Shown: positions 28,501 through 30,151 of the stretch, piece by piece | Layout: the number at the start of each line of letters is the position of its first letter | Numbering within the stretch: the first letter of the stretch is position 1 | Assembly (NCBI GenBank): GCA_903862845.1 | Contig: CAIOZS010000103.1 | Span: 6,187 to 70,186 of the forward strand | From: an uncultured Thermoleophilia bacterium | GTDB lineage: Bacteria; Actinomycetota; Thermoleophilia; UBA2241 | Reading direction: 5' to 3' | DNA length: 64,000 nt | The notes under the pieces: generated by a model | The model's database searches: none | Told to the model about the DNA's origin: nothing | What the model saw: only the letters and a program-made list of their open reading frames with translations | Program-made: the position numbers and the translations under genes

Positions 28501-29757
28501 TCAATGGAAGATCCTCGGCAGGCGCTTCTTCCAGGCGAGCGGAAGCACCAGGTCGATGGCATCGTCGATGGTGATGATGCCGTGCAGCTCGCCCTCGTCG
28601 TCGACGACCGGCAGGGCGAGCAGGTTGTACTTGGCGATCAGGTCCGTGATCTCTTCCTCAGAAGCGGCTGTGGCAACTGCCACAGGGTTCTCCGTCATGA
28701 AGTCGCGGACCTTCTTGTCTGGCGGCGTGGTGAGCAGGTCGCGCAGAGAGAACACGCCGCGCAGCTTCTCGGAACGATCGACCACATAGATGTAGTAGAC
28801 GGTCTCGACGTACTCCGCCTGCTCGCGCAGCCTCTGCGTGGCCTCTGCGGCCGTATCGTCAAGGCGTGCCCAGGCGTACTCGGTGGTCATGATGCCGCCG
28901 GCGGAGTGCTCCGGGTAGCTGAGCAGCTCGCGCATGTCGTCGGCATCGTCCTTCTCCATCATCGCGATGAAATGCGCGCGGCGGTCGTCGGGCAGGTCGG
29001 CGAGCAGGTCGGCGGCATCGTCGGGCGACATCTCGCTGAGGATCTCGCTGGCCTTGTCGTCCGGCAGATCGAGGAGCAGCGAAGCCTGGTACGAGGGGTG
29101 CAGCTCCTCAAACGTGTCGGCGGCCAGGTCGTCCTCAAGGGCGTCGAGCACGGCTGCCCGTTCTTCGGGCGAGAGCTCGTGGACGAGATCGGCGATGTCG
29201 GCGGGATGGAGCAGTTCCAGCTTGGTGCGGGGGACTGCGAGGCGCACCGAGCTGTCGTCGGTGTGCTCGACGTCGACGTCCTTCCAGTCGATGAGATGCG
29301 GTCGCGGGTTCTGGCGGCTCTTGACGAGGCGCTCGCTGACCTTGCCGAGGCCCACGCGGCGCAAGATAGCGCCGCTCGAGATGTCGACGCCCACGACGTG
29401 CACGTCGGCGCCGGTGCGCAGCAGCTGGATGTCGTTGACGCGGATGACCTTGCGGCCCTCGGTGTCGACGAGCTGCTTGTCGAGAAAGGTGGCCGAGAGC
29501 TGCAGCTCATCGGGCAGCAGTTCGCGTTCGCCCATGTCGGTGGCGGGGACGCGCAGGATCGTGCCCGACTCCTCGAAGCTGGTGACCTGGTCCCACGTGG
29601 CGTAGACGATGCGGCCGCGCCGCTTCACGGCGAGTGCCGTGACCCTCGGGTACGCTTGACCGGAGGAGACGATGAGGTCGCTCAGCGAGCCCGCCGGCTT
29701 GTCGGCGGCGTCGCGTACCGGGCTGCCGAGCAGCTTGCTCAGAAAGAACACCGGCAT
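28501..29757 (-). CDS. Cytoplasmic PRC-barrel + MgtE_N + tandem CBS protein (MgtE intracellular module without the transmembrane channel)
   Basis: MgtE_N acidic helical region (SPDDAADLLADLPDD) then a CBS pair (..VYYIYVVDRSEKLRGVFSLRDLL.., ..LLALPVVDDEGELHGIITIDDAI). Start ATG 29757 with a GGAGGAG SD. No TM helices. Confidence 0.7.
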   Translation of the reverse strand: MPVFFLSKLLGSPVRDAADKPAGSLSDLIVSSGQAYPRVTALAVKRRGRIVYATWDQVTSFEESGTILRVPATDMGERELLPDELQLSATFLDKQLVDTEGRKVIRVNDIQLLRTGADVHVVGVDISSGAILRRVGLGKVSERLVKSRQNPRPHLIDWKDVDVEHTDDSSVRLAVPRTKLELLHPADIADLVHELSPEERAAVLDALEDDLAADTFEELHPSYQASLLLDLPDDKASEILSEMSPDDAADLLADLPDDRRAHFIAMMEKDDADDMRELLSYPEHSAGGIMTTEYAWARLDDTAAEATQRLREQAEYVETVYYIYVVDRSEKLRGVFSLRDLLTTPPDKKVRDFMTENPVAVATAASEEEITDLIAKYNLLALPVVDDEGELHGIITIDDAIDLVLPLAWKKRLPRIFH

Positions 29758-29790
29758 CACCTCCTCCGCGGCCTGTCGACTTCGAGACAC

Positions 29791-29813
29791 AGAAAAACCT
29801 TCCTCGCGGAAGG
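29791..29813 (-). terminator. Intrinsic-terminator-like hairpin (CCTTCC-GCGA-GGAAGG + TTTTTCT) in the 5' leader of the MgtE_N-CBS/NRAMP operon; candidate attenuator
   Basis: Read on the minus strand: CCTTCCGCGAGGAAGGTTTTTCT, about 35 nt upstream of the start codon. No upstream minus-strand gene to terminate. Confidence 0.45.
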
Positions 29814-30151
29814 CTCCGTGCGCGCAGCAGGAGGGCGATCCTCACTCGTCCCAGCTTTAGCACAACATACCGTAGAGGTCAGGACCTCAGCCGTCTCGGG
29901 CAAAACCTTGATCCGGTAATGCCTGTTCTACCCGTTGGCGTCTCTGGACGTTTCCGGGCAACGGCCTCTATGTATGTCGGAGCCTCACCTAACGAGGAAC
30001 GCGCCGTAATTGACGCTCACAAAACGTACCCCCCGCGCCCGCACGGTGTCAAGGCGGCAGCGGGTGCTATACTGTACTGCTCAGGAGGCCGGCGCCGGCA
30101 GAGCGCCGGCTTTCGTGCGAAGGTCCAGAGAACCGCTCACGGGACGTCCAC

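Follow-up and report, generated by a model that had tools for sequence, protein, structure and literature searches.

Riboswitches of the M-box family are established Mg2+-off switches that work through formation of a terminator (PMC4072509, PMC11602163), and termination is the mode of action of most M-boxes (PMC4072509). Shin et al. (2014; PLoS Genet 10:e1004429, PMC4072509) found M-boxes upstream of genes related to Nramp and called the group NrmT; in Clostridium acetobutylicum, an M-box leader represses expression in response to Mg2+ in vivo, and NrmT rescues a Bacillus subtilis strain deficient in Mg2+ uptake. They also reported that "most group members" adjoin a gene with homology to MgtE's cytoplasmic N-terminal domain, and speculated on feedback regulation or a metal chaperone role for this ancillary gene, whose role was left unknown. 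Transporters of this type, also designated NRAMP-related Mg2+ transporters (NRMTs), carry Mg2+ with no coupling to protons (PMC8806188, PMC9606685), and the one from Eggerthella lenta, EleNRMT, transports both Mn2+ and Mg2+ (PMC8806188); the paper on its structure makes no mention of an ancillary protein (PMC8806188). Here we analyse a locus of this kind in a 64-kb stretch of DNA, hereafter the window, from an uncultured bacterium of the Thermoleophilia (Actinomycetota; contig CAIOZS010000103.1). We estimate at roughly 80% the probability that it holds a bicistronic Mg2+-uptake operon, under the control of an M-box riboswitch, for an NRMT and a soluble MgtE-like sensor.

The locus compares closely with those of Shin et al. 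(Ca_c0685 and Ca_c3329 of C. acetobutylicum, and Acp2976/Acp2977 of Acidobacterium capsulatum), which likewise combine an M-box and its terminator with a gene encoding a soluble protein homologous to the cytoplasmic N-terminus of MgtE, and with an adjacent NRAMP relative on the same strand. The arrangement was thus already described in 2014, and the window adds an example from an uncultured member of the Thermoleophilia, and no new principle, to M-box-linked cases that occurred "mostly in Clostridia and Deltaproteobacteria". There are, nevertheless, differences: the ancillary protein of Shin et al. is small, and split into two genes in C. acetobutylicum, whereas that of the window is a single chain of 416 amino acids with a tandem PRC barrel; additionally, the antiterminator of the window seemingly uses the 5' strand of the aptamer, which sets it apart from those loci.

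All coordinates given here are positions in the window, and the features of the operon lie on its minus strand (Table 1). The original prediction had described there an open reading frame with PRC, MgtE_N and CBS domains and no membrane domain, an NRAMP gene downstream of it, and a hairpin followed by a T-run, all of which are present. It had also proposed riboswitch- or attenuation-type metal control, naming the M-box (RF00380) first among the candidates, and the Rfam scan was positive for precisely this family. The match covers the full length of the model (positions 1–169 of 169) and, at 150.6 bits, exceeds more than three times the gathering score of 44; it sits 82 nt upstream of the first gene, in the same orientation, and the last gene of that operon is for an NRMT-type transporter. 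We scanned positions 29500–30400 permissively (E ≤ 10) and the rest of the window at gathering score, and the M-box was the sole match in the former and the sole Rfam family in the whole window; no other family, including the Mn2+ element yybP-ykoY, appeared at E ≤ 10 in those 900 nt round the leader or at gathering score elsewhere. The hairpin begins 20 nt past the aptamer, on the same strand, and from this position we take it to be the terminator of the riboswitch expression platform, which would control both genes of the operon.

The downstream gene had been called mntH. Its product does belong to the NRAMP family (PF01566), but its best match among PDB sequences is EleNRMT (7QIA; E 5.7e-105 over 389 residues), with MntH and DMT structures reaching 8e-26 or weaker. 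MntH identity was rejected because the protein scores 133.6 bits with NCBIfam model NF001923, against a cut-off of 430, and 82 with TIGR01197, against 272, and because the DPGN and MPH motifs are absent. In the alignment with EleNRMT, NDAGG stands for DPGN and GTTITPW for the Ala..Met-Pro-His motif; that is, in helix 1 the Asp is kept and Asn is changed to Gly, and in helix 6 Ala is changed to Thr, Met is lost and His is changed to Trp, while the helix-3 Glu and the helix-10 Gln are kept. The same differences in the binding site were reported for EleNRMT by Ramanadane et al. (2022; eLife 11:e74589, PMC8806188), where a Thr (Thr224) is needed for transport of Mg2+. The transporter of the window has in common with EleNRMT the NDAGG motif, the equivalent of Thr224, the Trp of helix 6, and the Glu and Gln of helices 3 and 10. 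By these sequence criteria, it is an NRMT-type transporter and not MntH, although by family name it would pass for the latter.

The protein encoded by the first gene contains, in Pfam searches, a PRC domain (residues 1–59; 29 bits, cut-off 21), MgtE_N (183–283; E 4e-28) and a pair of CBS domains (E 5e-20), and no match to the MgtE membrane domain, PF01769. Its highest 19-residue Kyte-Doolittle mean is 1.25 and, therefore, it has no transmembrane helix. The N-terminus, previously characterized as PRC-barrel-like, does score above the cut-off of PF05239 and has the PRC-barrel fold, but is better described as a tandem barrel: in the numbering of the 416-aa product, the order is a tandem PRC barrel (1 to ~175), MgtE_N (~180–282), the CBS pair (~285–402) and a basic tail, LPLAWKKRLPRIFH. 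Tandem PRC barrels are also known from the archaeal CdpB1 and CdpB2 (8QZO, 8ONW), which are ~16% identical and occur in an unrelated context, with no shared function implied. Residues 175–402 match the cytosolic domain of Thermus thermophilus MgtE (2YVY) with E 4.8e-40 and ~40% identity, and the whole protein scores 195 bits with the MgtE model TIGR00400, below its cut-off of 233. [quoted passage not shown] Compared with the MgtE channel (2YVY, 2YVX, 5X9G), the N domain and the CBS pair are thus common to both, the five-helix transmembrane domain and the acidic plug helix are missing, and the tandem PRC barrel is an N-terminal addition. Close homologues (P0001–P0120) are named in databases either "magnesium transporter" or [quoted passage not shown]; to call a soluble protein without a membrane domain a transporter is misleading, and this likely mis-annotation, together with that of the transporter, is corrected here.

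The acidic residues that coordinate Mg2+ in MgtE are conserved. Taking the ligands of the T. thermophilus protein from Maruyama et al. (PMC5882242), with the numbering offset verified on the alignment, E59 (site Mg7) corresponds to D212 of the window protein, and D91 (Mg4) and D95 (Mg6) to D244 and D248; an Asp or Glu occupies these three positions in 48, 53 and 55 of the 55 representatives, respectively. Likewise, D247 (Mg4) and D250 (Mg5) correspond to D397 and D400, with Asp or Glu in 54 and 48 representatives. The remaining Mg5 ligand, D226, corresponds to N376, a position with Asn in 31 of the 55 and Asp in 18. We thus conclude from the alignments that the soluble family conserves the acidic ligands of sites Mg4 to Mg7. 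The original prediction had pointed to the sensing of both Mg2+ and ATP by these parts in MgtE; for the soluble protein, the second half is doubtful. Of the residues that contact ATP in MgtE, Y170, R187 and D188 are kept, N203 is Thr and F227 is Leu, as in 49 of the 55 representatives; F227 makes the stacking contact with the adenine, and ATP binding was lost in the F227A mutant (PMC5529423), so its replacement by Leu makes ATP sensing by the soluble protein doubtful.

The C-terminal end of the protein also departs from MgtE. The chain ends 14 residues past the second CBS domain with LPLAWKKRLPRIFH (28501–28545), and the acidic plug helix is absent; E258 and D259, which are ligands of Mg2 and Mg3, align with KK in this basic tail. 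A motif of the form P-x-x-W-K-K-R-L-P-R-x-F (WKKRLPRxF) occurs in most members of the soluble family at the place where MgtE has its plug helix (EEAxED), and we found no description of this basic C-terminal motif. An exhaustive profile search over 1.84 billion representatives retrieved 1232 at E ≤ 1e-30; among the top 150, more than 100 are full-length soluble proteins of ~400–440 aa and about 25, of ~600 aa, match residues 1–402 and then continue. Among the long entries checked from these 150, two contain the PF01769 membrane domain, and none is a fusion of the soluble protein with an NRAMP. We read four long sequences; three of these, one with PF01769, run on beyond the CBS pair with an acidic plug helix (EEAxED) and then hydrophobic, membrane-like stretches, and PF01769 is also present in a fifth entry. 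Of P0141 and P0144 (~600 aa), P0187 (651 aa) and P0234 (749 aa), two have PF01769; the two that lack it have no Pfam match after the CBS pair, and go on with an acidic plug helix and hydrophobic stretches that resemble a divergent membrane region. Complete MgtE-type channels with the same PRC-barrel extension therefore exist, and the soluble protein looks like a PRC-extended MgtE channel minus the pore and with a remodelled tail.

A scan of genomes, with one genome per species, yielded 23 loci with full-length or near-full-length relatives of the soluble protein, the closest being 93% identical; the closest loci are from metagenome-assembled genomes of Thermoleophilia or unclassified Actinomycetota, and so place the window in that lineage. 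In all 23, the gene that comes directly after it in the same orientation is of NRMT type. The M-box is found at the same place in 20 of them, including one from the Chloroflexia and one assigned to Gemmatimonadales, with one cut at a contig end, and is absent from two Chloroflexota loci (~40% identity). Conservation of the leader in orthologous loci, the point on which the original prediction had chosen to depend, is thus apparent from these 20 loci and from the terminator stem, which is also kept. A scan of metagenomes gave 80 further loci with partner proteins of 36–86% identity, about 72 of them with enough downstream DNA to judge, and the soluble protein was followed by an NRMT gene in 66 of these, with partners down to 36% identity. 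Overall, the gene pair is kept in about 90% of the 95 judgeable loci, and all the partner-adjacent NRAMP genes of the fetched loci carry NRMT-type motifs. One point against our reading of the operon is that, using nhmmer, the M-box preceded a minority, 8 of the 66 judgeable metagenome loci with the pair; when 20 of the M-box-negative ones were rechecked with Rfam, no family was found apart from one tRNA.

Six metagenome loci (L073, L076, L090, L102, L109 and L125) encode a full-length soluble PRC-MgtE_N-CBS protein and have no NRAMP-type gene in the 1.5–3 kb downstream; therefore, the soluble protein is not always paired with an NRMT. Conversely, two tandem NRMT genes follow the gene for the soluble protein in L003 (4268–6363) and L017 (4265–6809), one of them ~64–66% and the other 87–94% identical to the transporter of the window. 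Across the Thermoleophilia loci, the partner-adjacent transporter is of one type or the other, while the partner protein is 77–93% identical, a distribution that suggests duplication followed by differential loss.

From these observations we propose how the operon might work. A conserved TTGACA/TACGTT promoter would probably start transcription some 10–15 nt ahead of the aptamer. At high cytosolic Mg2+, the M-box aptamer would compact and hold the strands of P1 and P2, in which state the GCCUUCC-GCGA-GGAAGGU hairpin and the U-run would form and transcription would stop before the first gene. At low Mg2+, the base of the aptamer would open and, in this clade, the 5' strand of P1/P2 would most likely pair with the terminator region CGGAGCCUUCCGCGAGGAA, blocking the hairpin and allowing the polymerase to read through; both this response to Mg2+ and the pairing are what we infer from the leader. 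The products would be an NRMT-type importer of Mg2+ and an acidic soluble MgtE-type sensor, which could add fast post-translational control: it might bind Mg2+ at the acidic sites equivalent to Mg4–Mg7, clamp shut as does the cytosolic domain of MgtE and, once clamped, restrain the adjacent NRMT, docking by the PRC barrels and/or the basic C-terminal tail. Tentatively, and with somewhat less than even odds, we thus suggest that the soluble protein could be a detachable Mg2+-sensing gate, that is, an MgtE sensor split from its own pore and re-used, via a remodelled basic tail and/or the tandem PRC barrel, to close an unrelated transporter of LeuT fold, the NRMT, when cytosolic Mg2+ rises, under a riboswitch with a 5'-strand antiterminator. 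If true, this would be a modular, trans-acting regulatory subunit common to two structurally unrelated systems for Mg2+ uptake. How cells keep an NRMT from Mg2+ overload is not known, and the role of the ancillary gene has been an explicit question since 2014; our literature search for later work on the ancillary protein found nothing in the library searched. The locus is a clean and well-conserved example and offers several handles on the question, namely the Mg4–Mg7 ligands, the lost adenine-stacking Phe, the basic C-terminal tail, and the tandem PRC barrel, which also occurs in a class of complete, 600-aa MgtE channels.

It could also be that the soluble protein is no gate at all, and acts as a Mg2+ buffer or chaperone, as a positive factor for assembly or stability, or as a sensor with some other target that is merely co-expressed when Mg2+ is scarce, which we consider rather unlikely. 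Two results of Shin et al. (PMC4072509) tell against a gate and agree with such roles: when expressed in a heterologous host, the Clostridium NrmT proteins did not need the ancillary gene to transport Mg2+, and complementation was the same when both Acidobacterium genes were expressed together, so that a strong effect of the soluble protein has yet to be seen. An inhibitory role, however, would not show in a rescue assay. The metal chaperone was offered by those authors as an alternative. A protein that is no gate would also suit the strongly acidic composition, with 79 Asp plus Glu against 47 Lys plus Arg, and the six loci without an NRAMP neighbour; moreover, close relatives form the N-terminal portion of full MgtE-type channels, and PRC barrels are therefore not peculiar to NRMTs. 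In favour of the gate, the same-strand, short-spaced adjacency of both genes, which extends across several phyla and to partners with 36% identity, is typical of proteins that act together, the conserved residues are those driving the Mg2+-dependent closure of MgtE, and a conserved basic tail, where MgtE has its acidic plug helix, speaks for a new surface for docking more than for simple buffering. That the soluble protein might contact the transporter, or regulate it, is what we infer.

A second possibility concerns the ion, since the operon might serve for uptake of Mn2+ or of divalent cations in general, with an M-box-like element sensing another ion or the total divalent load; we regard this as clearly unlikely. 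Apart from the dual specificity of EleNRMT, which moves Mn2+ as well as Mg2+, it would be favoured by the behaviour of the Acidobacterium NrmT, which has no M-box, acted as a Mn2+ transporter by rescuing a defect in Mn2+ transport, and was poor at restoring uptake of Mg2+ (PMC4072509), and by the position of the lost Met, which is Ala in EleNRMT (GTTIAPW) and Thr in the transporter of the window (GTTITPW). The last two points speak against a Mg2+-uptake operon. The Thr is the commoner residue among partner-linked transporters, being present in 68 of 90 TM6 motifs. A gene for a cation-diffusion-facilitator efflux protein that converges on the operon (see below) would also be compatible with a wider role. 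On the other hand, the M-box match is full length and far above its cut-off, with no yybP-ykoY or any other family detected at the thresholds given above; the M-box-linked NrmT proteins that have been tested moved Mg2+, and their riboswitch answered to Mg2+ in vivo (PMC4072509); and the equivalent of Thr224, needed for Mg2+ in EleNRMT, is kept. For transport of Mg2+ by the window protein, control by an M-box is indirect support.

The expression platform was examined in an alignment of 19 leaders, from the window and 18 of the M-box loci. The terminator hairpin consists of CCTTCC (29813–29808), a GCGA loop and GGAAGG (29803–29798), followed by TTTTT (29797–29793), with a folding energy of −10.8 kcal/mol as a stem of 7 bp and −13.7 as one of 10 bp. 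Its seven pairs are 99% paired across the 19 leaders, with one-sided changes only, from U-A to U-G and, in two sequences, to C-G, and both the hairpin and the U-rich tail are kept in 17 of them. The M-box is also present in a second, distant partner-NRMT lineage (L091, 4–172; L095, 73–240; L100, ~155–303), with partners ~40% identical. In this lineage, the platform is quite different: a helix in which the 3' strand of the aptamer takes part comes first, and a GCCGG...CCGGC-U6 terminator follows; therefore, the expression platform differs between lineages.

In the window, the aptamer 5' strand and CGGAGCCUUCCGCGAGGAA can form 8+2+9 bp, a pairing that takes up the two halves of the terminator. 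It is present in the unconstrained minimum-free-energy fold of aptamer and platform (−91.4 kcal/mol); the best fold restricted to the Rfam aptamer helices plus the terminator reaches −83.4 kcal/mol and is 8 kcal/mol less stable, Mg2+-dependent tertiary contacts not being counted. The pairing is 94% kept in the 19 leaders. In B. subtilis mgtE (ykoK), which has an aptamer of the same family and is likewise switched off by means of an intrinsic terminator, it is the 3' end of the M-box that pairs with the 5' half of the terminator to form the antiterminator (PMC11602163). An antiterminator of that type was considered and discarded, with matches of only 3–4 bp here. In all 23 leaders of the clade, the 5'-strand duplex (−26 to −37 kcal/mol) is stronger than the 3'-strand duplex (−15 to −28 kcal/mol), by 5–16 kcal/mol. 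The aptamer 5' strand is thus most likely the antiterminator strand in this clade and is the best available model. Several points, nonetheless, go against it: it differs from the B. subtilis arrangement, the antiterminator shows no two-sided covariation in the 19 leaders, its duplex energy is marginal, with 41 of 1000 shuffled platforms as good (so it beats only 96%), and the pairing is not evident in four M-box leaders from two other lineages (L020; L091, L095 and L100). The sequences were too similar for a covariation test of terminator and antiterminator, and shuffles were uninformative.

A riboswitch acting mainly on translation or on stability of the messenger, with the hairpin as a weak or incidental terminator, seems to us quite improbable. 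The stem is short, with 6–7 strong pairs, and was not listed by a simple consensus scan for terminators, perhaps because it may extend into the T-run by G-U pairs; moreover, two orthologues (L012 and L013) keep the hairpin without the U-tail, which weighs against termination as we propose it, in that termination may be weak or different in some relatives. The linker of the window, AUCGCCCUCCUGC, can pair with the Shine-Dalgarno region in a second predicted fold, through CCCUCCU. We rejected sequestration of the Shine-Dalgarno, since CCCAAACC replaces this CCUCC linker in 6 of the 18 aligned orthologues and, therefore, it is not conserved. Termination is instead supported by the 17 leaders that retain hairpin and tail, by M-box leaders that are independent yet head operons of this type (L020, L091 and L095), which have strong terminators of hairpin plus U6, the terminator of L100 being also clear, and by the prevalence of this mode among M-boxes (PMC4072509).

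We give almost no credence to the hairpin being a chance inverted repeat, or serving the divergent upstream gene: hairpins with a T-run are expected about 1.4 times per 3.4 kb in shuffled sequences, and by itself this one is not beyond chance, but the case for a terminator rests on its position 20 nt past a 150-bit M-box on the same strand, its folding energy and its conservation in orthologues, and, as the original prediction had noted, there is no upstream gene in need of a terminator, the nearest one lying on the other strand and pointing away.

Several features of the operon layout complement this picture (Table 1). The soluble protein most likely starts at GTG 29751, giving 416 aa, because ATG 29757 reads AGG in most orthologous loci, which have GTG or ATG at the position of 29751, and because the 120 closest database homologues are nearly all of 414–419 aa, most of 416; the GTG sits 8 nt past the GGAGGAGG Shine-Dalgarno. 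The length of 419 aa first given for the protein was therefore slightly too large, with the ATG version having 418 aa, and the hairpin, placed at 35 nt before the start, has its T-run ending 33 nt ahead of the ATG, or 39 nt if counted to the GTG. The NRMT gene begins 10 nt past the stop codon of the soluble protein, with its own GGAGG. A mechanical list of open reading frames extended it to ATG 28562 (27222–28562, 446 aa), overlapping the end of the partner gene; the 422-aa start (ATG 28490) is favoured, as alignments of orthologues begin there.

Table 1. Positions in the window of the features of the operon and its surroundings.
Feature	Position	Strand	Basis or remarks
NRAMP-related Mg2+ transporter gene (NRMT/NrmT type)	27222–28490	−	422 aa; PF01566, E 5e-90
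Soluble MgtE-like gene	28501–29751	−	416 aa; alternative ATG start 29757; stop codon 28501–28503
Shine-Dalgarno of the first gene, GGAGGAGG	29760–29767	−	Sequence; nearly invariant among orthologues
Putative riboswitch terminator, intrinsic, with stem GCCUUCC/GGAAGGU, GCGA loop and U5CU tail	29791–29814	−	Sequence, folding energy, conservation
Expression-platform segment CGGAGCCUUCCGCGAGGAA, pairing either inside the terminator or with the 5' strand of the aptamer	29800–29818	−	Folding, complementarity
M-box Mg2+ riboswitch aptamer (RF00380), P1–P6	29834–30003	−	cmscan, 150.6 bits, E 3.5e-36
Aptamer 5' strand (left halves of P1 and P2, UUCCUCGU..GG.GAGGCUCCG), proposed antiterminator strand	29978–29999	−	Complementarity to 29818–29800
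Small 5' stem-loop GCGUC-AAUUAC-GGCGC	30001–30016	−	Predicted in minimum-free-energy fold; overlaps first bases of the Rfam match
Putative promoter: −35 TTGACA (30052–30047), 18-nt spacer, −10 TACGTT (30028–30023)	30023–30052	−	Read from sequence
pfkB-family kinase gene, next upstream	30152–31117	+	Divergent from the operon

At the other end of the operon, the cation-diffusion-facilitator efflux gene (Cation_efflux and ZT_dimer domains; 26283–27218, plus strand) ends 3 nt from the stop codon of the NRMT gene, so that a divalent-cation exporter and an importer are placed tail to tail. The small 5' stem-loop lies near the presumed start of the transcript and is conserved in related leaders, with an invariant GCGTC; in L011 and L012, as read by eye from the alignment, its pairing seems to be kept despite a different sequence. 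In the putative promoter, the TTGACA is invariant among the 19 aligned leaders, as are the T, the A and the final T of TAnnnT. A consensus promoter scan missed it because TACGTT matches only 3 of the 6 positions of TATAAT. The sole sigma-70-like consensus match in the region, GTGTCA-16-TATACT (30046–30073, plus strand), faces the divergent pfkB kinase gene and overlaps the −35 TTGACA of the riboswitch promoter, in an arrangement of back-to-back promoters.

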